Assembly (NCBI GenBank): GCA_031266805.1
Contig: JAISAH010000084.1
Coordinates: 4,952 to 68,951 of the forward strand
DNA: 64,000 nucleotides
From: Gracilibacteraceae bacterium
Lineage (GTDB): Bacteria > Bacillota > Desulfitobacteriia > Desulfitobacteriales > Syntrophobotulaceae
Direction: 5' to 3'
Shown here piece after piece: positions 30,922 through 53,568 of this stretch (position 1 is its first letter; each line of letters starts with the position of its first letter). The notes beneath the pieces were generated by a model. The model was not told the origin of the DNA, did not search any database, and was given only the letters and a program-made list of their open reading frames with translations. A program made the translations under genes and the position numbers.

Positions 30922-30923
30922 AG

Positions 30924-31208
30924 ATGATCGCCAATTACGGCTGCGAAGACGGTTCCGGAGTATATTATATCCGGATCGACACGGGAAAATGCGGGGATTG
31001 CCAGCTCCGCGGCTGCGTGGGCGGATGTCCGCGGGAGCTGTTTGTGATAGAGGAGGATGATTGGGGCGACGAGATGGCCGTCGTGCGGGAAGACAGGCGC
31101 CGGACCCTGCAAGCCGCCTGCGCGGCCTGCAAACCCCAGGATCGCCCGCCGGACCCTTTGCCTTGCCAGAGCGCCTGCGGCAGACAGGCGATCGAACACA
31201 GCTGGTAA
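30924..31208 (+). CDS. Small ferredoxin-like Cys-rich protein
   Basis: 94 aa with C-x2-C-x4-C-x3-CP, then CAAC-x11-C-x3-C. Plausibly a 2x[4Fe-4S]-type protein with non-canonical spacing. Confidence 0.55.
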   Translation: MIANYGCEDGSGVYYIRIDTGKCGDCQLRGCVGGCPRELFVIEEDDWGDEMAVVREDRRRTLQAACAACKPQDRPPDPLPCQSACGRQAIEHSW

Positions 31209-31269
31209 ATAGTGGATATCTAAATACTCAGTGAGTTTTAGAGACATCCCAAGTGAGGAGGATATCAAA

Positions 31270-32058
31270 ATGGACATGAAGACGGAGTACCGGAGCATCA
31301 AGTATGAGACGGCTGACCGCGTCGCCACGGTCACTATGTGCGTTCCGGAAAAGATGAACGCTCTGGACGCGAGACTGGGGGAAGAACTGGCGTCGGCGCT
31401 GGCGCGGGCCAAAGCGGACGCCGCGGTCAAAGTCGTCGTGCTGACTGGGATGGGGAACGCTTTTTGCGCCGGCGGCGACTTGACGGGTTTTCCGGCGCTG
31501 GATCTCCAGACCGCCGCCGAAGGCATCCGTGATTCGGCCCGGTCGCTGGTCGGCGCTTTTACCAAATTGCCGAAACCGATCATCGCCGCGGTCAACGGTT
31601 TTGCCGTGGGGGCGGGATTGTCTCTGGCCCTGATCAGTGACATCGTGCTGGCTTCGGACAAGGCTGTGTTCGGCGCCGCTTTTGTCAATGTGGGCCTGAT
31701 CCCGGACATCGGCTCGCTCTTTTATCTGCCGCGGCTGATCGGGCTGCCCAGAGCGAAAGAACTGGCTTTTACCGGGCGCAATCTCAGCGCGCAGGAAGCT
31801 CTGACGATGGGCATCGTCAACCGGGTGACGGAAAACGACGCGCTGGCGGCGGAGGCGGCGAAACTGGCCGGGAAACTGGCGAGGCAGCCGGCCCTGGCGA
31901 TGGCGCAGGCCAAAGCGCTGCTCCACGCCAGTCTGGAGATCGGCGTCGACGAACTCATCGAGCTGGAGGGCATGGCCCAGGGGATCTGTATGCAGTCGGA
32001 AGATTCCCGTGAAGGCGTCGACGCGTTTTTGCACAAAAGGAAACCAAATTTTAAATAA
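31270..32058 (+). CDS. Enoyl-CoA hydratase/isomerase (crotonase) family protein
   Basis: ...VVVLTGMGNAFCAGGDL...PIIAAVNGFAVGAGLSLAL.SDI.... GAGGAGG lies 8 nt before the ATG at 31270. Confidence 0.88.
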   Translation: MDMKTEYRSIKYETADRVATVTMCVPEKMNALDARLGEELASALARAKADAAVKVVVLTGMGNAFCAGGDLTGFPALDLQTAAEGIRDSARSLVGAFTKLPKPIIAAVNGFAVGAGLSLALISDIVLASDKAVFGAAFVNVGLIPDIGSLFYLPRLIGLPRAKELAFTGRNLSAQEALTMGIVNRVTENDALAAEAAKLAGKLARQPALAMAQAKALLHASLEIGVDELIELEGMAQGICMQSEDSREGVDAFLHKRKPNFK

Positions 32059-32072
32059 CCGGGAGGGCACAA

Positions 32073-33212
32073 ATGAGTACGGAAACATTGTTTGAAAAAG
32101 CCGAACTGCGAAATTCCTCCGTGAAGGCCTGGAAAGAGCAGGGCAAAAAAATCATCGGCACGGTCTGCTGTCATGTGCCGGAGGAGATACTGCACGCCGC
32201 CGGCGCGATGCCTTATCGCCTGCGGGCCACGGGAGTCACGGATCTGAGCGAAGGCGACACATGGATGTCCACTTTTACCTGCAGCTACGCCCGCGGGACT
32301 CTGCAGTATCTGATCGACGGAACATTCGACTTCATGGACGGCGTGATTTCTTCGGACGGCTGCCTGATGGCCGGGCGTATTTTCGATAATTGGAAATATG
32401 TGGATGGCAACGCGGAGAAAAAGGAATTCTATTTGAAACAGATCGCGGCCCCGCGCATGAATAACGAAAACGCCGTCAGATATTACCGCGACTATCTGGA
32501 CCAGATGCGGACCGAACTGGGCGCTTATATGGGCGTGGAGATCACCGATGAGAAGATCCGGGCCTCCGTCGCCCTTTACAACGAGACCCGCCGGCTGATC
32601 CGCGCCCTGTACGATCTGAGCAAAAGCGACGCTCCCGTCGTCAGCGGGACCGAGCGCCTGAAACTCATCCTAGCCGCGTCCTCAATGCCCAAGGAAGAAT
32701 ACAATGAGATGCTGAAAGACTTTTTGGCAAGGGCCGGGAGCAGAGCCCCGATCAAGAACTATCGCGCCCGGATCATGCTCGTCGGCAGCGCGCTGGACGA
32801 CCCGGAGTATATCAAAGTCATCGAGGATAAGGGCGGTCTGGTGGTCACTGACGCCCTGTGTTTCGGCACCCGCTATCTCTGGGAGCCGGTCGAGCTGGAA
32901 GGCGGCGACGTCCTGACCTCCATTGCCGCTTCTTACCTGAAACGCCCCGTATGTCCGCGGATGGTGGATCTGCACGACGAGTTCGGGGATCTGATAGTTA
33001 ATTTTTGCCAGGATTTCAAAGTGGACGGCATCATCTACGAGCGCGTCAAATACTGTGAGATCTGGGGCGGCGAGGGTCTGTATTTCGGCGAGCACAAGGG
33101 CATGAAGGAAGCGGACGTCCCGCTGATCTTGCTGGAGCGCGAGGAGATCATGACCAATATCGGCCAGCTGGCCGTGCGCGCCGAAGCGTTTATCGAAATG
33201 ATCGAGAAATAA
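32073..33212 (+). CDS. HGD-D family subunit (BcrC/BzdN or HgdB/HadC-like)
   Basis: 379 aa: ...KIIGTVCCHVPEEILHAAGAMPYRL...; conserved Cys at VCCH, FTCSY, DGCLM and PVCPRM. Confidence 0.85.
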   Translation: MSTETLFEKAELRNSSVKAWKEQGKKIIGTVCCHVPEEILHAAGAMPYRLRATGVTDLSEGDTWMSTFTCSYARGTLQYLIDGTFDFMDGVISSDGCLMAGRIFDNWKYVDGNAEKKEFYLKQIAAPRMNNENAVRYYRDYLDQMRTELGAYMGVEITDEKIRASVALYNETRRLIRALYDLSKSDAPVVSGTERLKLILAASSMPKEEYNEMLKDFLARAGSRAPIKNYRARIMLVGSALDDPEYIKVIEDKGGLVVTDALCFGTRYLWEPVELEGGDVLTSIAASYLKRPVCPRMVDLHDEFGDLIVNFCQDFKVDGIIYERVKYCEIWGGEGLYFGEHKGMKEADVPLILLEREEIMTNIGQLAVRAEAFIEMIEK

Positions 33213-33236
33213 CCGAGTAAACTAGGAGGAAAAACC

Positions 33237-34490
33237 ATGAGCAATTTGATTGGGACTATTTCGCGTCAAGTTGACAGCGTCATCGAACACGCCAAGGAAA
33301 AATACGCGGATCAGATGTGGATGTTCGATGTGCAGAAAGCGTCCTGGGACGCCGTTTACCACGCCCATGACGAGGGCAAACGCCTGATCTATGTCGGCGC
33401 CTGCGCCCCGGTCGAACTGATTTACGCCTTTGACTGCGTGCCGTTCGTGCTGGACATGATCCCCACCCGTCTGGCCTCCACGCCGGAAGTAGCCGCCCGG
33501 TATATCGATCTGGCGGAGAAATATATCGCGCCGACGATGTGCGGCATCGATAAAGTGGATATCGGCGCCATCCTCTCCGGGGACATGCCGGACAAACCGG
33601 ACGCTTTTATCTATTCCACCGTTCCCTGCGACAACTCCCGCGTGGCCTACCCCTTCATCTGCGATCGGCTGGGATGTCCGTCCTATTGCATCGACGTCCC
33701 TTTCCGCAAAAACGAAATGGGTTTTGACTATATGGCCAGGCAGTATAAGGAAATCATCGTCTTCCTGGAAAAACTGACCGGCAAGAAGCTGGACTGGGAT
33801 AAGTTCCAGGAGATCATGACGATTTCCAACCAGACAAACGATCTGATGAACAAGATCGCCGACCTGCGCAGGATCACGCCCTGCCCGCTGCCGGGGCGCC
33901 TCTTGGTCCTGAATGAGATGATCCCGGGCATGGTGGGGCATCCGGCTATGCTTTCCTATCTGGAAGCGCAGTACGCCATCGGTCAGGACGCGGTCGCCAA
34001 AGGCCTGGGCGCGGTCAAAGAGGAAAAATACCGCGTATCCTGGCTGCAAAACATGCTGTGGTCCAACGTGGGCATCCTCGACTGGATGGAGCGGAAGTTC
34101 GGGGCGGTCCTGGTCATGGACGCCTTTGGCTATCAGCGCGGGCATGTTTTCCGGGATATAGACGATCTGGACACGATCTGCGTCGATTTTGCCAAAAAAG
34201 GGCTGGCCCTGCCCATGATCCATGGCGCCTCCGGCCCGGTCGAGGACTATATCGATCTGGTGGAAAACACGATGGGCGACTACAATGTCAGCGTATCCAT
34301 GTTCATCGGCCACGTGGGCTGCAAACACACCTGGGCCGCCGCCAAGATCATCACGGACATGATCCAGGAAAAATTCGGTCTGCCGACTTTATATCTGGAT
34401 GTGGACGCCGTGGACGGACGTTACAAGAAGACGGATGAGATCAGGGCCCTTATCACCGAATATATGGAAACAATAGAAGAAAATAAGTGA
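33237..34490 (+). CDS. HGD-D family subunit (BcrB/BzdO or HgdA/HadB-like)
   Basis: 417 aa: ...LIYVGACAPVELIYAFDCVPFVLD...TMCGIDK...VPCDNS.... Paralog of the previous gene. Confidence 0.85.
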   Translation: MSNLIGTISRQVDSVIEHAKEKYADQMWMFDVQKASWDAVYHAHDEGKRLIYVGACAPVELIYAFDCVPFVLDMIPTRLASTPEVAARYIDLAEKYIAPTMCGIDKVDIGAILSGDMPDKPDAFIYSTVPCDNSRVAYPFICDRLGCPSYCIDVPFRKNEMGFDYMARQYKEIIVFLEKLTGKKLDWDKFQEIMTISNQTNDLMNKIADLRRITPCPLPGRLLVLNEMIPGMVGHPAMLSYLEAQYAIGQDAVAKGLGAVKEEKYRVSWLQNMLWSNVGILDWMERKFGAVLVMDAFGYQRGHVFRDIDDLDTICVDFAKKGLALPMIHGASGPVEDYIDLVENTMGDYNVSVSMFIGHVGCKHTWAAAKIITDMIQEKFGLPTLYLDVDAVDGRYKKTDEIRALITEYMETIEENK

Positions 34491-42410: not shown

Positions 42411-42437
42411 CCTTGATTAGCCGCCGTCGGCGGCTGA

Positions 42438-42830
42438 TCACGCCCGCAAAGCGCGCATAGCGTTAAGGACGGCGATAAAAGTTACGCCCACGTCCCCGAA
42501 AACGGCGGCCCACATGGAAGCGAGGCCGAGGGCGCCGAGGACGAGGATTACGGCTTTAACGCCGAGGGCGAAAACGATATTTTGCCGGGCGATGCGAACG
42601 GTTTGCCTGGCGATGCGGATGGCGTCCACGAGTTTGGAGGGCTTGTCCGTCTGCGCCGCCACATCGGCGGCGGGCGGCGCCGCCAGCTCCACCGTCAGGC
42701 GCTGCCCGGCAAAATCCAGGACGGCGCGCGAGACGCCGCTGATCTTCCCGGCTTCGCGCTCTATTTTTGCCGCGCAATTAGCGCAACAGAGACCGGCGAG
42801 CAGAAATTCCCTTTTTATTACAGCTTCCAT
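42438..42830 (-). pseudogene. Internally deleted heavy-metal P1B-type ATPase (cadA/zntA-like) remnant: HMA domain fused in frame to the last two TM helices
   Basis: N-terminus LAGLCCANCAAKIEREAGKISGV (HMA CxxC) joins after about 65 aa to ...SKLVDAIRIARQTVRIARQNIVFALGVKAVILVLGALGLASMWAAVFGDVGVTFIAVLNAMRAL (the extreme C-terminus of CadA-type pumps). The A, P and N domains and TM1-6 are absent. Confidence 0.7.
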
Positions 42831-42870
42831 TTGTTATTCCCTCCCTGTTTGCCGCAACATAGCTGCGCTC

Positions 42871-43239
42871 TCATTCGCTGACGTGGAGCAGCCCCTGACG
42901 GAATATGGTGCCGATGTGGTCGTCGTCAAGCGAGTAGTAGACGATTTTGCCGTCGCGGCGGTTTTTGACCAGCTTGGTCTGCCGCAGCGTGCGGAGCTGG
43001 TGAGAGATGGACGATTTGGACATGCCGAGCAGGGCGGCTATATCGCAGACGCACATCTCCGAGTATTGCAGGGCGCAGAGGATCTTGACGCGGGTGGAAT
43101 CGCCGAAAACCTTGAACAGATCGGCCAGATCCAGCAGCAGTTCCTCGTCCGGCATCCGCCCCCGCACGGCGGCGACCACCTCGTCGTGGATCGTGCCGCA
43201 GTCGCAGCGGTCGTTTTCTGACAGGTTTTGAATGAGCAT
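42871..43239 (-). CDS. ArsR/SmtB-family metalloregulator (CadC-like)
   Basis: MLIQNLSENDRCDCG...LFKVFGDSTRVKILCAL...CVCDIA...SSISHQLRTLRQ..LV...R.GK.VYYSL. Confidence 0.88.
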   Translation of the reverse strand: MLIQNLSENDRCDCGTIHDEVVAAVRGRMPDEELLLDLADLFKVFGDSTRVKILCALQYSEMCVCDIAALLGMSKSSISHQLRTLRQTKLVKNRRDGKIVYYSLDDDHIGTIFRQGLLHVSE

Positions 43240-43303
43240 ATGGCGCCTCCTGAAATATCGGCCGGCTCGTACCAGCGAGCCAGACGGTTGATAGGTTGAA
43301 CAG

Positions 43304-43353
43304 TTGAACATGTATTCAATCGTTATTATAGAACAGCGCCGAAGGCTTGTCAA
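43304..43353 (-). promoter_or_regulatory. cadC promoter (TTGACA-17-TATAAT) followed by an imperfect TTGAA-N6-TTCAA operator-like palindrome
   Basis: Minus strand: -35 at 43348-43353, -10 at 43325-43330, palindrome TTGAATACATGTTCAA at 43304-43319. Confidence 0.55.
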
Positions 43354-43382
43354 GAGGTTTTGGGAAAAAAATTGCTAACCCG

Positions 43383-44939
43383 TCATTCGGGCGTTCTGAC
43401 GACCCAATGGCCGCCCTTGGCGGGGCCGACGCGCTTGACCGAGCCTGTCGCTTTTAGCGTTTGAATGTGAGCTTGGACATTGCGCGGCGCTATGCCGATC
43501 TCGTTGGCGATGGATTTTGCGGTTATCCTCGGCTCGGATTGCATCAGTTCCAGTATCTTGATCTGAACAGAGTTTACGCCGACGTTTTCTGCGATGCTTT
43601 CTCCGTTTTCTACGATGTTTTCTACGATGCTTTCTGTGTTTTCTACGATGCTTCCTCTGTTTTCTTCGATGTTTTCTACGATGTTTTCCCCGTTTTCTAC
43701 GATGCTTTTTATGGTTTCTACGATGCTTTTTGTGTTTTCTACGATGTATCCTCCGTTTTCTACGATGTTTTCTCCGATGGTTGCTCCTTCTCCGATGCTT
43801 TCTACGATGTTTTCTCCGATGCCGGTATCGGTGTTAAACCCGATCATGACGTAGTTTGAGTGTACTTCGTAAAATGGCTCCGCCTTGCCCCAAGACTTGC
43901 AGGAGTCGGTGATTTTCTCAATGCCGCGCCCCCAAGCCTCGATCTGTCCGGAACGGAAAAACGCGCCCGCAATGAGCGGGTTGTACGGCATCGAAGTGTG
44001 GGTGGCAAACAGTTTGTCGACAGTCCAATTTTCAGGCAATCTGCCGTCGTTGTATATCAGCACTTTATCCGGGTATATATGAATGTGGATCGGATTCCCG
44101 GTGCTGTAGTCCCTATGCTGGATAGCATTCAAAACGGCCTCGCGAAAAGCCCGCCTCGGCACAGGAAACGTCTCTATCCGCTGCAACCCTTCATAACTGA
44201 TGAAGCCTTTGAAATACTTCGTATAGACCAAATCCTCGACCTTATCCGCCATCGTGATGAGCGGGCCGTGGATTTCATCCTGATAGAGAATGTCGGCGGC
44301 GTTCTCGAAAAGACCTACTTTAACATACGCTCCCGGCACCCAATTCTCAGGGTCCTGATGGAAAATGAGCAGCGCCGCGCGCTTCAGGTAGTCACCCTCG
44401 ACAAGGCGCAGATTTTTCAAAAGCACCTCGTCAGTTATCTCCAGATCCTGAGTCGTCAGGCGGGCGCTGGCTATAGCTTTGCGCCGGAACACTTTAAAAG
44501 CGTCGCGCTCGAAGTCGTCGAACTTCACATACGGCATGGGCACGCCGTCCCAGGTCCTGCCCTGTTTGCGGAGCATAAACCCGTCGAGCGCGCTGCCTGT
44601 GAGTTCCTGCGTCGTGCTGCCGGAGCGGATGTAATAAACGCCGTGATAGCTGATGGGAAACGGGTACGCCCCCACGGTTATGGTGATGTATTTCTGGCCG
44701 TCCGCTTCATGGGCGGCGATATGGGGGATGATCGCCATCGCGTTCTTGATCTTGTTCGGCAAATCCTCCAAGAGTTTGGCCGTATCCTTGACGCCGACGA
44801 CCACGCCGCCGTCGTCGCGTCCGACTTCCAAAGTCCCGCCGGATGCGTTGGCAAAAGCGCAGAGCGTTTTCATATATTCATCGCGCCAAGTCTCTTTCCA
44901 CTCAAGGTTTTGGCTTTCCACGCCCAATCCTCCCGTCAT
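43383..44939 (-). CDS. AlbA_2 (Schlafen-like) / HATPase_c_4 / C-terminal winged-HTH protein with an internal IVEN repeat tract
   Basis: N-terminus ESQNLEWKETWRDEYMKTLCAFANASGGTLEVGRDD is the AlbA_2 signature. The middle part has ...FREAVLNAIQHRDY.... The C-terminus ILELMQSEPRITAKSIANEIGIAPRNVQAHIQTLKA is an HTH. The start (ATG 44939) is uncertain. Confidence 0.75.
   Translation of the reverse strand: MTGGLGVESQNLEWKETWRDEYMKTLCAFANASGGTLEVGRDDGGVVVGVKDTAKLLEDLPNKIKNAMAIIPHIAAHEADGQKYITITVGAYPFPISYHGVYYIRSGSTTQELTGSALDGFMLRKQGRTWDGVPMPYVKFDDFERDAFKVFRRKAIASARLTTQDLEITDEVLLKNLRLVEGDYLKRAALLIFHQDPENWVPGAYVKVGLFENAADILYQDEIHGPLITMADKVEDLVYTKYFKGFISYEGLQRIETFPVPRRAFREAVLNAIQHRDYSTGNPIHIHIYPDKVLIYNDGRLPENWTVDKLFATHTSMPYNPLIAGAFFRSGQIEAWGRGIEKITDSCKSWGKAEPFYEVHSNYVMIGFNTDTGIGENIVESIGEGATIGENIVENGGYIVENTKSIVETIKSIVENGENIVENIEENRGSIVENTESIVENIVENGESIAENVGVNSVQIKILELMQSEPRITAKSIANEIGIAPRNVQAHIQTLKATGSVKRVGPAKGGHWVVRTPE
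43581..43835 (-). repeat. Intragenic tandem repeat tract; about 13 copies of the core CATCGTAGAAAA (I-V-E-N) at variable 15-27 nt spacing
   Basis: The plus strand shows GTTTTCTACGATG recurring. The protein reads GENIVES..GENIVENGGYIVENTKSIVETIKSIVENGENIVENIEENRGSIVENTESIVENIVENGESIAEN. Confidence 0.85.
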
Positions 44940-45115
44940 TGGCGATCCTTTCACGCAAATCATAGCACGAGCCGTGGACTTTGTCCATATCAACACACCG
45001 TCCTCTGGGCATGTCTCCTTGCGGGAGAGTATTTTCTATTGTGAAAATAATCGCAATAAAAAATTTTTCTACGAGCCGAAATATTGCGTTTTGTGACCGC
45101 CGTGAGACCGGGCGA

Positions 45116-45124
45116 TGATATAAT
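45116..45124 (+). promoter_or_regulatory. Candidate extended -10 promoter (TGaTATAAT) for the giant wall-protein gene
   Basis: Read directly. No good -35 at 17 bp. It lies 18 nt upstream of the left inverted repeat. Confidence 0.4.
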
Positions 45125-45141
45125 GGCCTTGGATGATGTGT

Positions 45142-45163
45142 CATTTTACCTAAACTGTTACAT
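45142..45163. repeat. Left inverted repeat (CATTTTACCTAAACTGTTACAT) of a candidate invertible switch
   Basis: Its reverse complement matches 45281-45302 at 21 of 22 positions. Confidence 0.8.
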
Positions 45164-45223
45164 ATCGGCTGAAACCCTGATTTTCTCTGCCTTTCCGCAC
45201 CCCCCTTAAACCCGGATTTCCTG

Positions 45224-45248
45224 CCGCCGGCGCTCCCGGCGGTTTTTT
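45224..45248 (+). terminator. Intrinsic terminator inside the inverted-repeat-flanked segment
   Basis: CCGCCGG-CGCTC-CCGGCGG followed by TTTTTT. No plus-strand gene ends upstream of it, so it sits in the leader of the wall-protein gene. Confidence 0.6.
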
Positions 45249-45280
45249 GTTTGCCTGATTTGTCAACGGTTCCCGCAGGA

Positions 45281-45302
45281 ATGTAACAGTTTAGGTAAAC
45301 TG
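45281..45302. repeat. Right inverted repeat (ATGTAACAGTTTAGGTAAACTG); 45281-45308 is also self-palindromic
   Basis: ATGTAACAGTTT-AGGT-AAACTGTTACAT is a 12-4-12 palindrome. It pairs with 45142-45163. Confidence 0.8.
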
Positions 45303-45507
45303 TTACATTCGGACCGGCGGTGATCCTGCCGGCGAAGGGCGTCAAAAGCTGGCAGAGCGCGGGTTCAGGCGAATTCAGGCCGGTTTCGTCCGCGGGGCGG
45401 AGGGCGCCGGCGCGTAAAGGGGAAGGTTCCCCCCATAATTCCCGGAAACGGTTAACATAGATGGATCTGTATCATGATTCAAAAGAAATTATGGAGGTAT
45501 AGAACAA

Positions 45508-48500
45508 ATGAGACGAAAGCTAATGGCAAGTCTGCTCGTATTCCTCATGCTGCTCACGGTGCTGCCGGTCGCGGTATTTGCAGATGGGCCGGAACCGGAA
45601 CCAGAACCGACTTTAGCAGAACAATTGGCTGAGGTGAGGTCGCACATTAGCGTACTGCAAGCTGAATTAGCAGTAGCAGATCCAGAAGATGTAGATGATA
45701 CTCAAAAAGCACTTCTTAACGCAATTGTTTCAGCAAATGAAAATCTTTACCAGCGACTTTTTGGCGATGCTTATAATATTGCAGTTACAAGCGACGCTAA
45801 ATTTGTCATTAATTATTTCCTCGGTACTACCACTATAGATTTCCCATTTTTGTTCACCTATGTGGGATCTCATCTCTTACTACAGCACGATATACAAGTA
45901 ACTGCTGGCGTTTCTCGTGATGGTTCGTCCTATGGTTCAGAGGCAGAATCTCTGGTCAATATATCCAAACAAAGCGACAATGCTATTGATGCTGCGTATG
46001 ACCTCTGCCTGTATGTGAGCAAATACGTTGAAGCCACGCTGGCTTTGGAGTTAAACAATAACTTAGATTCTGGCGAGGCAGCTGATTATTACAATACAGT
46101 GACTGCTTATAATAACGACAATGAAGTGGCTAATCTGAAAGACGTCTTAATTGGAGGAGTTGCTCAGGAGAATAAACAGGTCAATATTAAAGAAGCTACT
46201 GTCATCGGTACTGGCATTGCAGCGCAAACTCACACAATCGACATGAAAAAAGTGGTTGGCGGCGCAGTTGATTTGTTTGAACTTGAGATGGGTGTAATCA
46301 GCGGAATAAATGATTTGCTTGATGGCGCGGGGGATATAATTGAAGGATTGTTCGGAGAAGACATCGCTGATATCGAAGCGCTTCTTAATCTTGACAATTA
46401 TAACATCGAGGCGCTTCAAGACGACCTTGATAACGCGACCACTGCTGAGGAAGCTTTAGCAATAAGAAATCAAGCCTTAACTGACAAGGGATTATTAGAT
46501 GGGGCTGTGGAAAGCGCTGAAACATTGATAACAGCGTTGAGAACAAATTTTGGCGATTTGATACCTGCAGAGATTTATGAGGGGCTGGAGGGTGAAGATA
46601 GCGCCCTTTCAGCCGCGAAAAACTTGGCGACTGGTTTTGGCACTCTGGCAAGTGACGCTTCTGACAAATATCTTGAATTACTTGCCGAAGACGGCGATAT
46701 GGCTACAAAAGCCTTTATCGAAAAAACAAAAGAACTCTCAAATGCCGCGCAGCAAGTGTCACAGCAGGCAGCCGACTTCAAGAGTGAACTGTCTGGAACA
46801 GTGACCGAAGCAAAAAGGGATAAAGCGCAGGCATTTATAGATGACCAAACGGCGGATAGAGCGAAAACTAAACTTGCGGCAACAAAAAGCGACCTGAGTT
46901 TGGAGGCCGCGCTTAGCGCGTTAATAGGTTCCTATGGTGAAGACACGGCAGCCGCAGATGTCGCGAACGCTAAGGGAACTGCCGCGTTAGAGCTTGCAAA
47001 TGGCAACTATAATGATGCCGTGATTGCTATGAATGAAGCCCTTGAGTTTGCAAAAAAAGTCGTCGGGGATTATGACACCATACAGGGCAGCAAAGATATA
47101 ATTGCTGATTTCAATAAAGTTGCGGCTCTGTTAGGTAATATCGGTGCTATGCTCAGTAATTACGCCGGCATTGATTTCAGCAATGCGGACGCCGGTGTAA
47201 ATACGACCTTGGATTTTTTGGAAGCAGACCTCAAGACCATTAAAGAGGCCATAGAAAGCGCTAATAGGGTGAGCGATTGGTTGCTGGCTGCTAATCCGAC
47301 TGTAGTTGATCTTATTGAAACGACTTTAGGCATTGATTTAAGCGACGCCGACTTGAGCGCGGTCATCGCCGGAGCGCTTAGCGCCGCCGTGCCGCAAGTC
47401 AAAGATACCATCAGCGGTTTGCTTAACGGCGGCGGTCTTGAATCCAGCCAGGTGAATAGTATCATCTCCGCCTTGGAAGGTTTGATCGACACCGACAATT
47501 TATTCTCGCTGGACGATCTGGCCAGCAATATCGACGATGCCCTTGTGATCATTGGTAATATAAAGATAGATTACCAATTCGGCACTGACGTCAAATTGCA
47601 GGAAATGATTGATTTTACCAACTCCATCATTGACGGCGGCATCGCGGCCAGATATGAGAATCTGGACATTGATTCTTTGAAAGATGTGGGCGTCCTGCTC
47701 GAATATATCCGGGAGGATCTGGACACGGCGATATCCGTCGTCATGTCCGCGGATATCATCGACAAAAACCTTCGAACCCTTCTCGGCGACAACACGGTCT
47801 CCGGCGTTGTGTTCGGTTTTCTGAGCGATACTTTGCCCGGTCTGATCGACGGTCTGCTGGACAGCGCTGATCTGGATGATTATATTGATCTGAGCGGCAC
47901 CGGCAGTATTGTGAAAGATCTGCTCAGTACGCTGGCGGACGCGGATGTTGACGCGACGGGTACGGCGCTGGAGTATCTGGGTTATGTATCCGAGGCGCTG
48001 GATGATGTAATTGACATCTACGGAGAAATCACGGAACTTTTCACTTATAACGGCGAATATATCCAGGGATTGGATCTGCCGGACGTGCTGGACGCGCTCG
48101 GCCTGGACGGCGAGGCTCTGGTCAAGCTGTTTGACGGTATTCTGGACGCGGCGGCCGGCAGCGTGGCCGGTATTCTGGACGAAGTCGGGATAGACGCCGA
48201 CGAGAAAAAAGCGCAAATCCGAGCGGAACTGGCGCAACTGATTGACAACCTGAATGATTTCGGCGATTTCGTCACTCAGCTGGAAGCTATCGCCGGCGAG
48301 TTGAACGGCCTGTACGATTTAGCGGCGGGCTATCTGACCGAGACCGAGATCGAGCAAATCGCGGCTGATATCTGGCAGTATTGGGGCGACGATATTACAG
48401 CCGAGCTTTGGAAACTTCTGGAAAGCGAGGCCAGTCTCACTCAAAAGGACATTGACGACTTTATAGAACGGGTCGCCCAAGGAACCGCTGAGTTTTACGA

Positions 48501-51426
48501 AAATAATGTAAAACCTTATGTGGATATCATTGCGTACTTTTCCACACTCACAGACGTTGAGTTGAGGGCCGAGGCCATCAAGGCCGTGACCGATTTGTAC
48601 AAGACTTATCTGGAAGACCGGGTCAACGGCGTGATTGCCGACTATCAGCTTGATGAGGCGTGGAGAACCCTGCAGGACGTTTATGCGGGATTCCTGAGCG
48701 CGCTGGAAAAAGCTCAAAAAATTTACGACTGCATTGACGGGATCAGCAACGAGGACGTCAAGGCGTTCCTGCAAGAGTTGGCCGACAGATTGGTACAGGC
48801 GGCCATCGATGAATTGACAAATTTTGCCAACGAATTGAAAGATCTCACCTGGGCGGAAATCCAGAACTTAGCGCGGGAGATCAGCGCGGATCTGCGGGCC
48901 GTCGCCCAGACGCTGGAGTACGTGTACGACCTCGCGGCTGGCGCGACACAGGAACTGATCAGCGAATTGAAAGCTCTGATCAGGGATAACTACGATCCCG
49001 AATGGGCGAGCGCGGCCGGAGCCCTGATTGAAGAAGCTCTAAGCCGGGCTTGGGAAGATATTTCCGCGGCGGCGATCGCTTTCTGGCATGACGGCGACGT
49101 GACCGCGTTCCGCGAAACGGTGGAAGCGCGGGCGAATCAAGTTTACGGCGGTCTCAAGTATGTCGCCGACTATATTAAGGCGAACGGCGAAATCAGCATA
49201 GCCGCCGAGAACGGAACAGGCGACGTGTTCTATACGCTGTCCGCGAACTATGATGAACTGCTGAACGCGGATTTCTTCGGCGAGCCGGTTCTCGGCAGCG
49301 CGGTTGAACTGCTGAACAAACTCGGCTTCACGCTGGAATACCGGCTGGACGCGGCGAGCGCAGCGGCAGGATTCAGCATTGCCAATGGCAATGAAATCGT
49401 CGGCCTCGGCGCGGCGGCGGGTTCGTACGATGTCGGGATTGAGTATTATCTCGTATACGGCGCCAAGAACCAGGAGTGGAAGCTGGCGGCGACAGAAGTA
49501 CAAATTTCGATAGTACAGACCCACACCGTCACATTCGTGGACTATGACGACACAGTATTGAAAACCGAGACCGTTAATCACGGCGACGCGGCCACGGCTC
49601 CGGCTGACCCGACACGTGACGGTTACACTTTCACTGGCTGGAATGTTCCTTTCGCCAACATCACATCAGACCTTACAGTCACGGCGACTTACACGCCAGT
49701 CGCCACACCGCCCGCCACCACTTACACCGTAACGGTGATTAACGGCACGGCGGACAACAGCAGTTACGCCGCTGGCGACACTGTGACCGTCACCGCCAAC
49801 GCCGCGCCTGCCGGACAGCGGTTCAGAGCGTGGACGTCCCCATCCGTGACCTTCACCGACTCCACGAGCGAAACAACTACTTTCACCATGCCGGCATACG
49901 CCGTCACAGTCACGGCGAATTATGAGCCGATCCCCGTTCCCTCCGCCGGAGCCTACAGGGTAGACCCCGACACCACCCTTTCCTTCGGCACGGTCTCGGT
50001 CGGCTACGCCCCTGTCGCCCCGCAAACCGTCACTGTCTACAACACCGGCGGCACGGCCTGGACAAATGTGAGCCTGACCCTTACCGGCGCTGACCCGGCT
50101 GCTTTCGCGATACCGGCAGGTGCGTTTGACGTGTCGGCAAACGGCTATACGTCCTTCGAAGTCAGTCCTGTAAACGGACTGCCTGTGGGATCCTATAGCG
50201 TCAGCCTGATTATCAGCAACGGCAATGAAACCCTTTCCGTCACGCTATCCTTTACAGTGGCGCCCCTGCCTGTAAGCGTCAGCGAGATCACTCTCCCCGC
50301 CCCAGTCAGAGGCGCGGCCCCTGCCCTTAGCATCGACAACGACCAGTTCAGCGGGACTGTGACCTGGAGTCCGGCCGTGGGCGCGACTTTTGCCACCCGC
50401 ACCTCTTACACGGCCACCATCACGCTGATCGCAAAAGACGGTTACACTTTAGACGGTATTGACGCAAACTTCTTCACTATCCCCGGCGCGACAAGCGTCA
50501 CCTATGACCCGGCTACCCGGACGATCACCGCGGTATTCCCACAGACAGCCGGTACTTCTAGCAGCGGCGGCAGCGGCGGGGGCTTAAGCACCGTCATAGA
50601 CGAAGAAACGCCTCTGGCCGCTCTGCCGAGCGTCAGCTATATCTACGGCGCGGACAGGGTGGAAACAGCCATCGCCATCTCGAAAGCCGGCTGGACCTCC
50701 GCTGAGGCCGTGATCCTCGCCCCCGGCGACAACGACCATATCATCGACGCTCTCTCTGTTTCTTCCCTCGCCGGACAGGACGACGCCCCGATTTTACTCG
50801 TATTAAATAACAGCATCCGCGAAAGCGTGTTCACGGAGATCGCGCGGCTCGGCGCCAGCAAAGCCTATGTAGTGGGCTCGCTGGGTCAGGGCGTGGCCGA
50901 TCAGCTCAAAGCGCGCTTCCCGGCCATTGAGATCATAGTGCTGCAAGGCGCGAACCGGGTGGAGACGGCTAAACTGATCAACGCCCGCGTCACGGCTCCG
51001 CAGGGCACGTTTGTCGTAGGTTACAGCGCCATAGCCGACGCGGTGTCCGCGGCCTCGTTCGCGGCGGCCAACGGTTATGTGATCCAGATCGCCGCTTCGG
51101 GTGGGGTATTCAGCGGCGACGCCTCCCTCGGCGGCTACGTCCTGGGCGGCCCGACTCTCGTGCAGGATGTGAGCGGCCTGACCCGGATCTACGGCGCGGA
51201 CCGCTACGCTACAAACCAAGGTATGCGCGATTCCCTCACCTTTATGTATGACAATGTGTATTTCGCGAACGGCGTCACGCTGGTAGACGCGCTGACCGGT
51301 TCGGCCCTGGCGGCCAAGAGCCGGGCGGTCATCCTCCTCACGCCGCAGAACGACCCGACTAATTTGAACCTCGGCCCCGTGACTCCGGAAACCAGAGTCT
51401 ACGGTTTCGGCGGCCCGGCGGCCTGA
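45508..51426 (+). CDS. Giant secreted cell-wall protein: signal peptide, acidic helical region of about 1280 aa, Listeria-Bacteroides (Flg_new) repeats, Ig-like region, three C-terminal CWB2 repeats
   Basis: Signal peptide MRRKLMASLLVFLMLLTVLPVAVFA. HTVTFVDYDDTVLKTETVNHGDAATAPADPTRDGYTFTGWN is a Flg_new repeat. The C-terminus has three units of the YGADR(V/Y)ETA... type, typical of CWB2. Confidence 0.85.
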   Translation: MRRKLMASLLVFLMLLTVLPVAVFADGPEPEPEPTLAEQLAEVRSHISVLQAELAVADPEDVDDTQKALLNAIVSANENLYQRLFGDAYNIAVTSDAKFVINYFLGTTTIDFPFLFTYVGSHLLLQHDIQVTAGVSRDGSSYGSEAESLVNISKQSDNAIDAAYDLCLYVSKYVEATLALELNNNLDSGEAADYYNTVTAYNNDNEVANLKDVLIGGVAQENKQVNIKEATVIGTGIAAQTHTIDMKKVVGGAVDLFELEMGVISGINDLLDGAGDIIEGLFGEDIADIEALLNLDNYNIEALQDDLDNATTAEEALAIRNQALTDKGLLDGAVESAETLITALRTNFGDLIPAEIYEGLEGEDSALSAAKNLATGFGTLASDASDKYLELLAEDGDMATKAFIEKTKELSNAAQQVSQQAADFKSELSGTVTEAKRDKAQAFIDDQTADRAKTKLAATKSDLSLEAALSALIGSYGEDTAAADVANAKGTAALELANGNYNDAVIAMNEALEFAKKVVGDYDTIQGSKDIIADFNKVAALLGNIGAMLSNYAGIDFSNADAGVNTTLDFLEADLKTIKEAIESANRVSDWLLAANPTVVDLIETTLGIDLSDADLSAVIAGALSAAVPQVKDTISGLLNGGGLESSQVNSIISALEGLIDTDNLFSLDDLASNIDDALVIIGNIKIDYQFGTDVKLQEMIDFTNSIIDGGIAARYENLDIDSLKDVGVLLEYIREDLDTAISVVMSADIIDKNLRTLLGDNTVSGVVFGFLSDTLPGLIDGLLDSADLDDYIDLSGTGSIVKDLLSTLADADVDATGTALEYLGYVSEALDDVIDIYGEITELFTYNGEYIQGLDLPDVLDALGLDGEALVKLFDGILDAAAGSVAGILDEVGIDADEKKAQIRAELAQLIDNLNDFGDFVTQLEAIAGELNGLYDLAAGYLTETEIEQIAADIWQYWGDDITAELWKLLESEASLTQKDIDDFIERVAQGTAEFYENNVKPYVDIIAYFSTLTDVELRAEAIKAVTDLYKTYLEDRVNGVIADYQLDEAWRTLQDVYAGFLSALEKAQKIYDCIDGISNEDVKAFLQELADRLVQAAIDELTNFANELKDLTWAEIQNLAREISADLRAVAQTLEYVYDLAAGATQELISELKALIRDNYDPEWASAAGALIEEALSRAWEDISAAAIAFWHDGDVTAFRETVEARANQVYGGLKYVADYIKANGEISIAAENGTGDVFYTLSANYDELLNADFFGEPVLGSAVELLNKLGFTLEYRLDAASAAAGFSIANGNEIVGLGAAAGSYDVGIEYYLVYGAKNQEWKLAATEVQISIVQTHTVTFVDYDDTVLKTETVNHGDAATAPADPTRDGYTFTGWNVPFANITSDLTVTATYTPVATPPATTYTVTVINGTADNSSYAAGDTVTVTANAAPAGQRFRAWTSPSVTFTDSTSETTTFTMPAYAVTVTANYEPIPVPSAGAYRVDPDTTLSFGTVSVGYAPVAPQTVTVYNTGGTAWTNVSLTLTGADPAAFAIPAGAFDVSANGYTSFEVSPVNGLPVGSYSVSLIISNGNETLSVTLSFTVAPLPVSVSEITLPAPVRGAAPALSIDNDQFSGTVTWSPAVGATFATRTSYTATITLIAKDGYTLDGIDANFFTIPGATSVTYDPATRTITAVFPQTAGTSSSGGSGGGLSTVIDEETPLAALPSVSYIYGADRVETAIAISKAGWTSAEAVILAPGDNDHIIDALSVSSLAGQDDAPILLVLNNSIRESVFTEIARLGASKAYVVGSLGQGVADQLKARFPAIEIIVLQGANRVETAKLINARVTAPQGTFVVGYSAIADAVSAASFAAANGYVIQIAASGGVFSGDASLGGYVLGGPTLVQDVSGLTRIYGADRYATNQGMRDSLTFMYDNVYFANGVTLVDALTGSALAAKSRAVILLTPQNDPTNLNLGPVTPETRVYGFGGPAA

Positions 51427-51477
51427 GGCCCAGGCAAGCACAGACAAGCAGCTGAATAAGTAAGACCCGTAAGACGC

Positions 51478-51523
51478 AAGAGACCCGCCCCGAGTAAAGG
51501 GGGTGGGTCTCTTGCTGTTTTTT
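51478..51523 (+). terminator. Intrinsic terminator of the wall-protein gene
   Basis: AAGAGACCCGCCCC-loop-GGGGTGGGTCTCTT, then GCTGTTTTTT. Confidence 0.7.
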
Positions 51524-51547
51524 GGATTCCGGCATGGAGCCGGAATG
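51524..51547. repeat. REP-like palindromic element, copy 4 (GGATTCCGGCATGGAGCCGGAATG)
   Basis: Same family as 826, 863 and 2788. It shares the CTGTTTTTTGG prefix with copy 2. Confidence 0.7.
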
Positions 51548-51658
51548 ACGGCGAGGCAGGGGGTGGATTTTCCATGATTTTATGCTATACTATTTTATAT
51601 GAAAACGGCTTTGTTTCCTTGTAAATTTGCTCATAGAAACGGTTAGGAGGAGATACCT

Positions 51659-52426
51659 GTGAAAAAAATGAAACGTAAGATACCCGGGCGCGGACTTATT
51701 TTGGCGGCGGCCCTCATGTTCGCCCTCGCCCTGAGCGCTTGCGGCGCGGGCGCTCAGTCGCCGCCGCCGCAAACCCCTCCCGCAAGCGGCGGCACGGACG
51801 CTAAAATCGCCGTGATGACGCAAGAGTATGAAGGGGATAATATCGCTGAAATACTGAAAATCGAATATGAAGGCGAAAACCCGGAAATCAGCGCCATCAA
51901 CAGCGACATTTCCCAGGAGATCTATCAGCGGTACAGTGATTTCAAGACCGGCGGCGAGCAAGGGGATTCTTGGATGGAGACTCGCGCTTATCCCTTTACC
52001 GGCGACGATTATCTGCAAATCGTCATGACGCAAGTGGAATATCCAATATATGGAACAGACGGCGAGATCTGGAGTTACAATTTTGACCGCCGGGAGAACG
52101 CGCGCGTCTTGCTGGCGGATGTAATGAACGGCTTGGAACTGACCGAGGACGCGCTCACCCAAAGGGTAAAAGAGCTGTATGCGCCGGAATCCCCCTCTCA
52201 ATCGGTGGGCGCCGTCAGCGCCAGGGGTTTCCTGATCCTTCCCGGCGGCCAAACCCAATTGCTTTTGCGGGTGACCGTCGAAAATTCGGAAGCGGAGCCC
52301 TGGGATTCCTTTTATGGGTTCAGCCCTCAGACGGGCGAGCTTTTGCCGCTGAACAAAGAATGTTTGTTCGCGCCGGAGGAAATGGATCGGATGGATCCGC
52401 CGCTTTCCTATGACAGAACGCAATGA
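51659..52426 (+). CDS. Lipoprotein of unknown function
   Basis: MKKMKRKIPGRGLILAAALMFALALSAC G lipobox. AGGAGG lies 8 nt before the GTG at 51659. Preferred over the antisense ORF 51590-52423. Confidence 0.65.
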   Translation: MKKMKRKIPGRGLILAAALMFALALSACGAGAQSPPPQTPPASGGTDAKIAVMTQEYEGDNIAEILKIEYEGENPEISAINSDISQEIYQRYSDFKTGGEQGDSWMETRAYPFTGDDYLQIVMTQVEYPIYGTDGEIWSYNFDRRENARVLLADVMNGLELTEDALTQRVKELYAPESPSQSVGAVSARGFLILPGGQTQLLLRVTVENSEAEPWDSFYGFSPQTGELLPLNKECLFAPEEMDRMDPPLSYDRTQ

Positions 52427-52460
52427 AAATCAATATATCATGAAGTTTGAGAATATGAAA

Positions 52461-52493
52461 GAGCAATCCCTTAAACAGGACTGCTCTTTTTTT
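52461..52493 (+). terminator. Intrinsic terminator
   Basis: GAGCAATCC-8 nt-GGACTGCTC followed by TTTTTTT, between convergent lipoprotein genes. Confidence 0.6.
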
Positions 52494-52517
52494 ACATTCG
52501 TAAGTTAGGGGAGCTTC

Positions 52518-53153
52518 TTACCCCTTTGACTCCTGCGTGACAAAGAACTCGGCAAAATCCGGCAGCACGCTGGGTTCCACTACCGGGTCGAGCGCCAGCG
52601 AAGCGGAGACGCCGGCGCCGCCGTCCGCGATATTTTCGTTATACCACAAGATCAGGGCGGGACCGGTGCCTTCGCTTGTGTACACCGTGATCTGCTGTCC
52701 GCCGCTGAGCTCCGCCGTTTCCGTTTTCGGATAAGAGTTAAAATCGCCGGAGATCGCGAGCGCCTCGTCCGTTTCGGTCCTAGACGCGCGGTAAACGACG
52801 TTGACCGGGCCTTTGCCGGTTTCCATCACATAGGTCATCGACGCCACTTTATCGCCGATCATGCTGTATTGAGCGCTTTTCGCGAATTCATCCGGCGCGT
52901 AGAAATCAAAGCCCAGTTTGCCGCTAATCTCGTCCCCCGTCGATTCTACCAACGGATTGGGCACATCGACTGCGTCGTCCGGCGTTATTTCCGGTGTTTC
53001 GCCCGGCGTTACCTCCGGTGTTTCGCCGGACGTCTGCGGCGCGGCGGGAGGGGCCGAAGAGCCGCAAGCGGCGAACGCGAACCCTATGGCGGCGATGAGC
53101 GCCAAAATTCCCAGTTTAGTGAGGGCAGAATACTTCTTCATTTGAATATGCAT
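52518..53153 (-). CDS. Lipoprotein of unknown function
   Basis: ...LGILALIAAIGFAFAAC GSS lipobox followed by a (G)ETPE(V/I)TP repeat linker. The start (53153 or 53141) is uncertain. Confidence 0.6.
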   Translation of the reverse strand: MHIQMKKYSALTKLGILALIAAIGFAFAACGSSAPPAAPQTSGETPEVTPGETPEITPDDAVDVPNPLVESTGDEISGKLGFDFYAPDEFAKSAQYSMIGDKVASMTYVMETGKGPVNVVYRASRTETDEALAISGDFNSYPKTETAELSGGQQITVYTSEGTGPALILWYNENIADGGAGVSASLALDPVVEPSVLPDFAEFFVTQESKG

Positions 53154-53568
53154 ATCTTTTCTTTTTTTCTCCTTGTCTGTTTTCCAGAAATTACGAGTTG
53201 GACCCGTAAATATTATATCACGAATATAGCGATTTGTGAAATATTAATAAGCGACCGATGGGCGTGCGACAAATTTGGAGGTGCCGCGAAGCGGCGGAGG
53301 GGTCGCAATTGACAAACAGCCGTATTCGCGGTATCGTTAACATGACCCAGACTACGAACTCGCGCGCGCAGCGGATCACAAGGCGAGGGGATTGGAGTTT
53401 TACAGAAAATGGGTTAAACAATAATTCGCCGCGGCCTTTATGGAAAAATTTGGGACGGGCGTTTCCTTTTTTTCGGTTGCAAAAAAACCGCGGATATGAT
53501 ACACTTCAAAACGAAGCGGACGTTTGGGGGATCCCGGACTCCGTACACTAAACCGGGAGCGGAATAAA

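Follow-up and report, generated by a model that had tools for sequence, protein, structure and literature searches.

A candidate cwpV-type terminator inversion switch upstream of a giant CWB2 surface-protein gene in an uncultured Gracilibacteraceae bacterium

Introduction

The locus analysed here raises the question of how RNA polymerase can transcribe a giant surface-protein gene whose leader contains a predicted intrinsic terminator in the sense orientation. The open reading frame of 1972 codons is intact, and a constitutive terminator in front of it would make no sense, so some way of bypassing the terminator must exist. In Clostridioides difficile, RecV, a tyrosine recombinase, flips the cwpV switch (Cdi1) (Emerson et al. 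2009, PMC2784873). The cwpV promoter lies upstream of the left repeat, the inverted repeats are imperfect and 21 bp long, and the terminator is formed in the OFF orientation only (PMC2784873).

An earlier note on this DNA proposed a cwpV-like switch at the locus. The anatomy of that proposal (promoter, repeats, one-way terminator, and CWB2 gene) stands in our analysis, while the dyads in which the repeats are embedded fit a pair of operators equally well. Judged by its sequence, the locus is a good candidate for a terminator-type DNA inversion switch (inverton) of the cwpV type that would phase-vary the giant CWB2 protein, and we give this reading about an even chance of being correct.

Results

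The features discussed below are located in the window, i.e., the whole 64-kb stretch of DNA that was analysed, and are as follows:

43383-44963, minus strand: gene of the AlbA_2 regulator (SLFN_AlbA_2 / HATPase_c_4 / winged HTH), divergent, with its own promoter at 44987-44959
45116-45124, plus strand: extended -10 box TGATATAAT, a perfect match without a recognisable -35 box; predicted transcription start at ~45131
45136-45163, no strand: site 1 (IRL), an imperfect 13-2-13 dyad ATGTGTCATTTTA-CC-TAAACTGTTACAT with the core CC at 45149-45150
45164-45280, no strand: putative invertible cassette, 117 bp between sites 1 and 2
45223-45249, plus strand: predicted intrinsic terminator with an 8-bp stem (45223-45243; 7 G-C pairs), a 5-nt loop, and then T6GT3
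45281-45308, no strand: site 2 (IRR), a perfect 13-2-13 dyad ATGTAACAGTTTA-GG-TAAACTGTTACAT with the core GG at 45294-45295
45309-45507, plus strand: remaining 5' leader (~200 nt) with the RBS GGAGGT at 45493-45498
45508-51426, plus strand: giant surface-protein gene (1972 aa; signal peptide, Flg_new repeats, three C-terminal CWB2 domains)

As the earlier note had it, IRL (45142-45163, CATTTTACCTAAACTGTTACAT) and the reverse complement of IRR (45281-45302) are identical at 21 of 22 positions and enclose 117 bp. This intergenic pair ranks first among the inverted repeats of the entire 64-kb window, in which the other 14 pairs are mostly G+C-rich imperfect matches within ORFs; one of these pairs, I13, is the terminator of the giant gene. 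The half-site TAAACTGTTACAT is present in three exact copies, all at this locus and nowhere else in the window, and with up to two mismatches it has five matches as compared to 0.41 expected, a number that was reached in none of 100 shuffles. Taken together, four half-sites form two 28-bp dyads, which are alike at 25 of 28 positions and the centres of which are 145 bp apart. Three of the half-sites are identical, including the inner arm of site 1, and the outer arm of site 1 matches them at 10 of 13 positions (chance probability ~1.3e-4). Site 2 widens to 15-2-15 over 45279-45310 with flanking GA/TC (pair I4, 100% complementary); thus, the palindrome of which IRR had been described as one half is of the 13-2-13 type (15-2-15 with GA/TC) and not of the 12-4-12 type. 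New relative to the earlier note is that IRL is a dyad as well, and that both sites are 13-2-13 with inverted cores. These sequence features are real and beyond chance.

The two dyads are direct and inverted repeats simultaneously, and only the central CC versus GG tells these readings apart. With the cores CC and GG, sites 1 and 2 are in inverted orientation, and the non-palindromic, mutually inverted cores allow inversion and not deletion. A 2-bp staggered cut, as made by a serine recombinase, would leave compatible ends only in the inversion alignment, and the same is true for the 6-8-bp overlap of a tyrosine recombinase; an 11-6-11 site of a tyrosine recombinase would fit the dyads as well. 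Provided that the crossover falls in the cores, the predicted inverted stretch is ~45149-45295, and the flipped form would have a junction in which, e.g., TAAACTGTTACAT is directly followed by TCCTGCGGGAACC. An assignment of the dyads as dif/Xer sites (28 bp, 11-6-11) was set aside upon inspection, as their geometry is possible but the conserved bases are far from the core. In dif sites, the conserved bases adjoin the core.

As far as sequence can tell, the 13-2-13 dyad geometry is that of a recombinase crossover site and equally that of an operator of a dimeric regulator. We consider it unlikely that the dyads serve a dimeric DNA-binding protein as operators, in which case the DNA would not be rearranged and the terminator would be a separate feature. 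One dimer would then occupy ~+5 to +32 and the other a position 145 bp downstream, and repression would be exerted by roadblock or looping; the candidate binder would be the divergent AlbA_2 / winged-HTH protein or a regulator whose gene lies outside this region. The symmetry of both sites is classic operator geometry, site 1 is directly downstream of the predicted transcription start, the winged-HTH gene is transcribed divergently from the shared intergenic region, and a recombinase gene is absent nearby. However, operators need neither three half-sites that are identical at 13/13 positions nor complementary central dinucleotides. The distance of 145 bp corresponds to ~13.8 helical turns, which means that the sites are not in phase and argues against operators. 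Moreover, the operator reading leaves unexplained how the strong sense terminator is passed, despite the intact 1972-codon ORF.

The extended -10 box is located 12 bp upstream of site 1 and outside the putative cassette, in agreement with the earlier assignment of a promoter just outside IRL; the box is a perfect match, and the promoter itself is a predicted one. The pattern TGNTATAAT occurs six times in the window as compared to 0.74 expected. Of these copies, four are intergenic and face a downstream gene. The other three intergenic boxes precede start codons by 54-59 nt, whereas the copy at 45116 is 384 nt away from the ATG at 45508, which makes the leader behind it ~7 times longer than at these three boxes. 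The strong GC hairpin with T6 that had been seen inside the 117-bp segment, on the sense strand of the gene, was likewise recovered; its predicted dG is ~-15.6 kcal/mol, and it is directly followed by TTTTTTGTTTG on the plus strand. When the nascent RNA 45131-45249 is folded, the hairpin is part of the minimum-free-energy structure. It ties for the second rank among terminator-like sites in the 36-56 kb region, behind the terminator of the giant gene itself (51476-51515). For the cassette as sequenced, the scan returned one terminator (a single hairpin in four adjacent registers), sense to the downstream gene. In the in-silico flip or on the opposite strand, the hairpin is followed by AGGAAAUCC, without a U tract, and the number of terminator-like sites is 0. 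The gene upstream is divergent, and therefore no upstream gene of the plus strand needs this terminator, consistent with the earlier observation that none ends there. Inspection and a sigma-70 scan found no promoter within the 117-bp segment in either orientation, and the scan, which covered sigma-70 only, found no consensus promoter on the plus strand downstream of the terminator. Both the promoter activity and the terminator efficiency are predictions.

In the terminator inverton that we prefer, transcription would start at the extended -10 promoter (45116-45124), which lies outside the switch in either orientation. In the sequenced orientation, RNA polymerase would meet the terminator at 45223-45249 ~115 nt into the leader, and the gene would be OFF. 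The two 28-bp dyads would be bound by dimers of a site-specific recombinase whose gene is located in another part of the genome, and strand exchange at or around the central CC/GG would invert the ~145-bp stretch. In the flipped orientation, the hairpin would lack its U tract, which would permit read-through of the 200-nt leader into the gene (ON). Inversion and the recombinase, whichever its type, are putative elements of this model. With only 117 bp between the sites (145 bp from centre to centre), inversion would require sharp DNA bending.

Two further explanations retain the terminator and dispense with rearrangement of DNA. In one of them, which we regard as very improbable, a dimeric protein that bridges the dyads across 145 bp and holds the terminator DNA in a tight loop would gate the access of polymerase to the terminator or its read-through; the AlbA_2 / HATPase_c_4 / winged-HTH protein is a candidate for such a bridge. 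In the other, promoter and terminator would delimit a short independent transcript of ~118 nt (45131-45249), which may be a small RNA or else an attenuated leader controlled by a trans-acting antiterminator, e.g., a processive NusG/LoaP-like factor or an RNA-binding protein, and the repeats would act as RNA, with site 2 forming a 14-bp hairpin or with a long-range R1:L2 pairing. Long genes and operons of Firmicutes can rely on antitermination. A canonical terminator ~115 nt after a perfect extended -10 box is what such a transcript would be expected to have, and in the read-through RNA site 2 does fold as a 14-bp hairpin, while R1 pairs with L2 in the flipped fold. Nevertheless, this explanation appears clearly unlikely. 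At gathering scores, Rfam covariance models matched nowhere in the 64-kb window, and all that turned up in the region 44950-45600 with E up to 10 were chance matches to RNA families of eukaryotes, for the most part miRNA precursors; judging by these scans, a known riboswitch is absent from the leader. Inspection of the nascent RNA found no competing pairing that would sequester the terminator's 5' arm. As site 2 is transcribed only after the terminator, its RNA cannot affect the termination decision. The DNA-level architecture of four half-sites and the inverted cores would also be left unexplained. In the remaining leader, a possible anti-RBS stretch was noticed at 45430-45440 (pair I6; z = -2.2).

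The earlier note had suggested looking for tyrosine or serine recombinases and for the same repeat at other loci. The recombinase search covered the 69,939-bp contig, and none is encoded there: no recombinase domains were found in its proteins with the use of Pfam, also when the JGI gene calls were taken. NCBIfam gave no matches. As for the repeat, no dyad or pair was present elsewhere in the contig or in the genome, metagenome, or viral collections. Scans with the 19-mer TTTA(SS)TAAACTGTTACAT gave seven single matches in genome_contigs, of which the two clostridial ones were inspected and are not dyads; TTTACCTAAACTGTTACAT gave two single matches in metagenome_contigs, and the SS form gave two in viral_contigs. 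None of these matches is a dyad or is paired, and all are consistent with chance. The same scans also missed the contig of the window itself, so that either this metagenome or MAG is outside the searchable data or masking has hidden the stretch. A blastn search with 45100-45320 gave no match in the plasmid and phage collections, and a literature search for the half-site sequence led only to unrelated papers, in one of which it was a PCR primer. An exact-protein look-up of the giant protein and the regulator led to a single JGI contig, which is the window itself (0 mismatches over 21,251 bp). The Logan contigs recovered from the same run end at 43938 and resume at 51397, and none spans the switch; the orientation of the locus is thus known from one assembly only.

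The downstream gene encodes a giant CWB2 wall protein, as had been proposed: PF04122 (CWB2) matches it three times at the C terminus (E = 1.5e-28), and Flg_new repeats are present in addition. Its N-terminal region of ~1300 aa is nearly orphan: with the N-terminal 1200 aa, HMMER searched 1.84 billion representative proteins and detected the entry of the protein itself plus 15 distant relatives. Both ORFs that follow the giant gene encode lipoproteins.

The 11-kb stretch at 42.4-53.4 kb is a mosaic, is missing at the syntenic position in a related strain, and contains a P-type ATPase gene with an internal deletion as well as a regulator gene that has copies elsewhere. The G+C content dips at 44-48 kb. 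The giant gene sits in a strain-specific, low-G+C surface-protein island, and surface-modification genes are described as a class that often adjoins invertons (PMC11892184). The mosaic nature of this stretch and the drop in G+C would also be in line with a non-functional relic, i.e., a scar or a miniature remnant of a mobile element or of past recombination. The giant gene would then be driven by an unrecognised downstream promoter, e.g., one of an alternative sigma factor, which agrees with the restriction of the promoter scan to the sigma-70 consensus. We find this quite improbable. A second copy is lacking on the 70-kb contig, in the three public contig collections searched with the 19-mer, and among the plasmids and phages searched by blastn. 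Unlike in MITE termini, it is the inner arms that are best conserved, the outer arm of site 1 being the least conserved one, and the perfect identity of three 13-mers argues for ongoing constraint.

The genes of this neighbourhood also bear on the question of whether the dyads are operators. Relatives of the AlbA_2 regulator (90%-identity protein cluster; 87-89% DNA identity) are found in other genomic contexts, and none of the available flanks has the half-site, which speaks against the regulator as the binder of the dyads. This holds for the clusters of P0020 and P0021 (regulator), and the relatives of P0023 (ArsR) are likewise in other contexts lacking the half-site. An assignment of the dyads as operators of the neighbouring ArsR was rejected, as the arsR-type gene is served by a separate promoter and by a different operator, TTGAATACATGTTCAA, which is conserved in the related strain.

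Discussion

If real, the switch described here is a further case of the known cwpV-type terminator inverton. In both loci, the promoter (a predicted one here) is outside and upstream of the segment, imperfect inverted repeats of ~21-22 bp surround a short segment without a promoter or an ORF, and an intrinsic terminator (in silico here) is formed in one orientation only. The downstream protein is large and has three CWB2 domains, the recombinase gene is not adjacent to the switch (here, none is on the contig), and the orientation that was published for cwpV is OFF, as is predicted for the one that was assembled here. The differences concern mainly dimensions and details of the arrangement. The segment is 117 bp here as compared to 195 bp in cwpV, and the distance from the right repeat to the start codon is 200 nt as compared to 57 nt. 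The terminator is placed wholly within the segment here, whereas in cwpV it sits where the left repeat meets the segment, and at the present locus each repeat is a complete 28-bp dyad. At this phylogenetic distance, the repeats would not be expected to resemble the C. difficile targets of RecV. In the giant protein, the CWB2 domains are C-terminal, and the rest of it has no detected homology to known families. The host is an uncultured Gracilibacteraceae MAG, in which inversion and the recombinase are putative.

In the case of the C. difficile flagellar switch (Cdi4), located upstream of flgB, a segment of ~154 bp with 21-bp repeats is reportedly situated in the 5' leader downstream of the promoter. 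This switch is said to act after transcription initiation and to be served by the RecV recombinase, which is reportedly able to act from a chromosomal distance. The shortness of the invertible segment is shared by the locus analysed here. The OFF state of Cdi4 is described as Rho-dependent (PMC7446863), in contrast to the predicted intrinsic terminator here, and its target is the flagellar operon. More generally, recombinases of such switches can be encoded away from the switch (PMC5903667), and in the Mpi system of Bacteroides one recombinase serves distant loci (PMC5903667, PMC11602134). With fimS (FimB/FimE) and the Mpi-dependent segments, the putative cassette shares a short intergenic location between repeats upstream of a surface-structure gene (PMC5903667, PMC11602134). 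However, those segments contain a promoter, while here the promoter is outside and the cargo is a terminator.

The sites themselves resemble those of the Hin, Gin, and Cin invertases (hix, gix, cix), in which inverted half-sites surround a non-palindromic core of 2 bp and one site is inverted relative to the other. Hix sites have a 12-2-12 architecture, as compared to 13-2-13 here. Hin acts on two 26-bp hix sites, each bound by a dimer, and systems of this type have segments of ~1 kb or more and a Fis-bound 65-bp enhancer, with the invertase gene usually in or beside the segment (PMC3798978). In contrast, the 117-bp segment found here is too small for a 65-bp enhancer plus loops, and none is recognisable; no invertase gene is present within 70 kb, and there is no sequence similarity to hix. 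A novel reading, less radical than protein looping, would be a terminator inverton driven by a serine recombinase, with hix-like dyads and a very short cassette of 117 bp. If true, the cwpV logic would have arisen a second time, independently of C. difficile.

In C. difficile, CwpV provides phase-variable resistance to phages (PMC4737114), and by this analogy phase variation of the giant protein would suggest a surface structure that is costly or exposed to phages or as an antigen. If verified, the locus would be the second terminator-flipping switch, found in a distant uncultured family (Gracilibacteraceae), and would indicate that the terminator-flip logic recurs ahead of CWB2 surface proteins. 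Should there be no switch, what remains is simply a structured leader with an operator pair. The inverton surveys considered here are framed around invertible promoters; verification of the switch would be a reason for inverton finders to score terminators that depend on orientation as well. Verified, the 117-bp segment with one terminator would also be a clean, minimal cassette for synthetic use.

Organization of the locus

The intergenic region 44964-45507 separates two divergent genes, one encoding a regulator and the other a giant surface protein with three C-terminal CWB2 domains (PF04122, E = 1.5e-28). The features of the locus are as follows:

43383-44963, minus strand: regulator gene (SLFN_AlbA_2, HATPase_c_4 and winged-HTH domains)
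44987-44959, minus strand: predicted extended -10 promoter of the regulator gene
45116-45124, plus strand: extended -10 box, TGATATAAT
45136-45163: site 1, ATGTGTCATTTTA-CC-TAAACTGTTACAT
45164-45280: intervening segment (cassette), 117 bp
45223-45249, plus strand: hairpin of 8 pairs (7 G-C) with a 5-nt loop, dG ~ -15.6 kcal/mol, then TTTTTTGTTTG
45281-45308: site 2, ATGTAACAGTTTA-GG-TAAACTGTTACAT
45309-45507, plus strand: rest of the leader, 199 nt, with the RBS GGAGGT at its end
45508-51426, plus strand: giant gene, 1972 aa, with signal peptide and Flg_new and Flg_new_2 repeats

The earlier note read this region as a cwpV-like genetic switch. All its coordinates and counts hold (repeats matching at 21/22 positions, the 117-bp segment, the T6 run and the -10 box), and the observation stands, in sharpened form. 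Its interpretation has partial support: the anatomy is borne out, and the inversion itself is a candidate. New is the finding that site 1 is itself a dyad, the outer arm of which, ATGTGTCATTTTA, agrees with the half-site, the 13-mer TAAACTGTTACAT, at 10/13 positions (chance probability ~1.3e-4). Site 2 forms a perfect dyad of 13-2-13, which its flanks extend to 15-2-15 (inverted-repeat pair I4). The locus thus contains four half-sites in two 28-bp dyads, 145 bp apart from centre to centre. Arm symmetry makes the two sites direct and inverted repeats simultaneously; they are given an orientation solely by their central dinucleotides, which are CC (site 1) and GG (site 2) and mutually inverted.

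These features exceed chance. Exact copies of TAAACTGTTACAT occur three times in 64 kb, all at this locus, and with up to two mismatches there are five matches vs. 0.41 expected, a number reached in 0/100 shuffles. The site 1/site 2 pair is the top-ranked inverted repeat of the window; the 14 other pairs are mostly G+C-rich, with 71-89% matches, and located within ORFs, and one of them (I13) corresponds to the terminator of the giant gene. The same terminator (51476-51515) ranks ahead of that of the cassette, which ties for second place in 36-56 kb. The motif TGNTATAAT is present in six copies in the window vs. 0.74 expected, four of them intergenic and pointing at a gene (19509, 26146, 45116, and 53212). 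Upstream of the three other genes it likely marks promoters, and, judging from these motifs, the organism seems often to use extended -10 promoters that lack a clear -35 box. Since the copy at this locus lies 384 nt from the start codon, as compared to 54-59 nt for the three other intergenic copies, the leader here is unusually long.

Possible functions of the dyads and the terminator

By analogy, the dyad architecture is that expected of a crossover site at which a recombinase binds as a dimer. The hix sites of Hin, for instance, have a 12-2-12 arrangement about a 2-bp core. They comprise 26 bp (PMC3798978). The 28-bp sites can also be read as 11-6-11, in the fashion of tyrosine recombinases, and with either chemistry compatible ends are predicted in the inversion alignment only, and none in the deletion alignment. 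For a dimeric transcription factor, too, such symmetry would be necessary, so the dyads raise the probability of both readings. A pair of operators for a dimeric regulator would fit the dyads, the placement of site 1 right downstream of the predicted transcription start and the adjoining HTH gene; we nevertheless consider it unlikely, as it does not explain the terminator, copies of the regulator from the same 90%-identity cluster (87-89% DNA identity) are found at other loci without the half-site, and the adjacent ArsR has its own, different operator.

The terminator hairpin is present in the minimum-free-energy fold of the nascent RNA 45131-45249, with no competing structure. A scan for hairpins followed by a U tract detected one terminator in the region as sequenced and none once 45149-45295 had been inverted in silico; in the flipped form, a run of A precedes the hairpin and AGGAAAUCC follows it. 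No sigma-70-type promoter was found on the plus strand within or downstream of the cassette. The giant ORF is intact across 1972 codons, which indicates that the terminator is bypassed under some condition. The attenuation proposed in the earlier note as an alternative is weakened: site 2 is located downstream of the terminator, so its RNA comes too late for pairing with it to decide termination. The distance of the terminator from the promoter (~118 nt) would suit a short independent transcript, or a leader under trans-acting antitermination. This explanation seems quite improbable, given that the DNA-level architecture is unaccounted for, there is no antiterminator pairing, and Rfam yielded no match in the whole window at gathering scores and, at E up to 10 in 44950-45600, nothing beyond chance matches to families of eukaryotic RNAs, for the most part miRNA precursors. 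Flipping of the cassette would account for all cassette features by a single mechanism, and we give an inversion switch about an even chance.

The leader fold has a z of -2.2. Downstream of site 2, CCCCCATAATT (45430-45440) pairs with AATTATGGAGG (45487-45497), which includes the RBS of the giant gene, and could form an RBS-sequestering helix.

Relation to known systems

The closest match to the candidate is the cwpV switch (PMC2784873). In both cases, a promoter (predicted, for the candidate) is located before the left repeat, imperfect repeats (21 bp in cwpV) flank a short segment devoid of ORFs and promoters (here by a sigma-70 scan), the intrinsic terminator is confined to the OFF orientation (here in silico), the published sequence has the OFF orientation (here predicted), and a CWB2 protein gene follows. 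The segment is shorter (117 bp vs. 195 bp) and the leader beyond the right repeat longer (~200 nt vs. 57 nt) than in cwpV. Unlike in cwpV, the terminator lies entirely within the cassette, the sites are full dyads, and the CWB2 domains are C-terminal, the rest of the protein having few relatives and no detected homology to known families. That the candidate would work like cwpV rests on anatomy, and since the defining feature of the family is demonstrable inversion by a recombinase, membership is not claimed. With Hin-type systems the locus has site geometry alone in common; it differs from them in segment size, enhancer, and adjacent invertase gene.

The cwpV recombinase is encoded elsewhere; here, the search for recombinases suggested in the earlier note revealed no protein with a recombinase domain in the window or elsewhere on the contig, including the JGI Pfam calls. 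This removes a possible confirmation. C. difficile RecV and B. fragilis Mpi are, as a rule, encoded away from the switches they serve (PMC5903667), and thus the absence of a recombinase from the contig is weak evidence against the switch.

The N-terminal ~1200 aa of the giant protein (aa 27-1226; 45586-49185) appear nearly orphan by sequence: a full HMMER search of 1.84 billion representative proteins retrieved its own entry and 15 distant relatives, the best with 36-43% identity over partial stretches, and no Pfam or NCBIfam domain was found before residue 1339. A word-index protein search missed the protein's own entry, although present in the collection, so its report of no homologues is unreliable for this low-complexity, acidic protein.

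If real, the switch would be a second terminator-type inverton before a CWB2 protein gene, in a phylogenetically distant organism. As invertons are widespread, it would not surprise specialists. It is a clean, easily testable candidate, and the raw reads are public.

Genomic context

The window lies in a Gracilibacteraceae MAG (NCBI MDR13215xx) and corresponds to contig Ga0466704_340887 (69,939 bp) of JGI 3300042643, window position 1 being record position 5008. With 0 mismatches across 21,251 bp, that contig is not an independent assembly. In the Logan assembly of the same run, the recovered contigs end at 43938 and begin at 51397, and none spans the switch. Exact look-ups placed the giant protein and the regulator on Ga0466704_340887 only.

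Scans of genome, metagenome, and viral collections for the repeat at other loci, also suggested earlier, gave isolated matches, those inspected being due to chance, and no dyad or pair; blastn against plasmids and phages gave nothing. In a related population (JGI 3300042612, ~93% DNA identity), the flanks are common up to 42410 and from 53439, and other genes (RelB, PIN, NADAR) replace the 11 kb between them (42411-53438). The switch and giant gene are therefore located in a strain-specific mosaic island, and no orthologous switch is available for comparison. A relic of a mobile element or a recombination scar in such an island is very improbable: no further copy was found in any collection searched, the best-conserved arms are the inner ones and not the termini, and three 13-mers are still identical. 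The G+C content is 0.475-0.507 at 44-48 kb vs. ~0.6 over much of the window; such a mosaic, low-G+C setting suits an accessory, possibly phase-varied, surface protein.

The 11 kb comprise an HMA stub, ArsR, the AlbA_2 regulator, the switch, the giant gene, and two ORFs after it encoding lipoproteins. The nearest copies of the ArsR/HMA genes and of the regulator are found at other loci of the related population. The HMA-domain ORF 42438-42830 (130 aa), in 42425-43320, is a fused remnant of a P-type ATPase gene; compared to the locus encoding the 709-aa ATPase in the related strain (L022), ~1.7 kb are deleted (L022 positions 961-2698). In the case of ArsR, both the promoter and the TTGAATACATGTTCAA operator are conserved. 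Copies of the regulator from the same 90%-identity cluster occur in at least two other genomic contexts (L020 and L021), and the regulator carries a degenerate tandem peptide repeat (…ENIVE / SIVEN…) between HATPase_c_4 and HTH (43553-43780, minus strand).

Elsewhere in the window, 29226-34490 contains a gene set of the benzoyl-CoA-reductase / 2-hydroxyacyl-CoA-dehydratase type (BcrAD_BadFG, HGD-D), adjoined by genes for ETF, an acyl-CoA dehydrogenase and an activator of sigma-54 type. The organism seems to degrade aromatic compounds or amino acids anaerobically.
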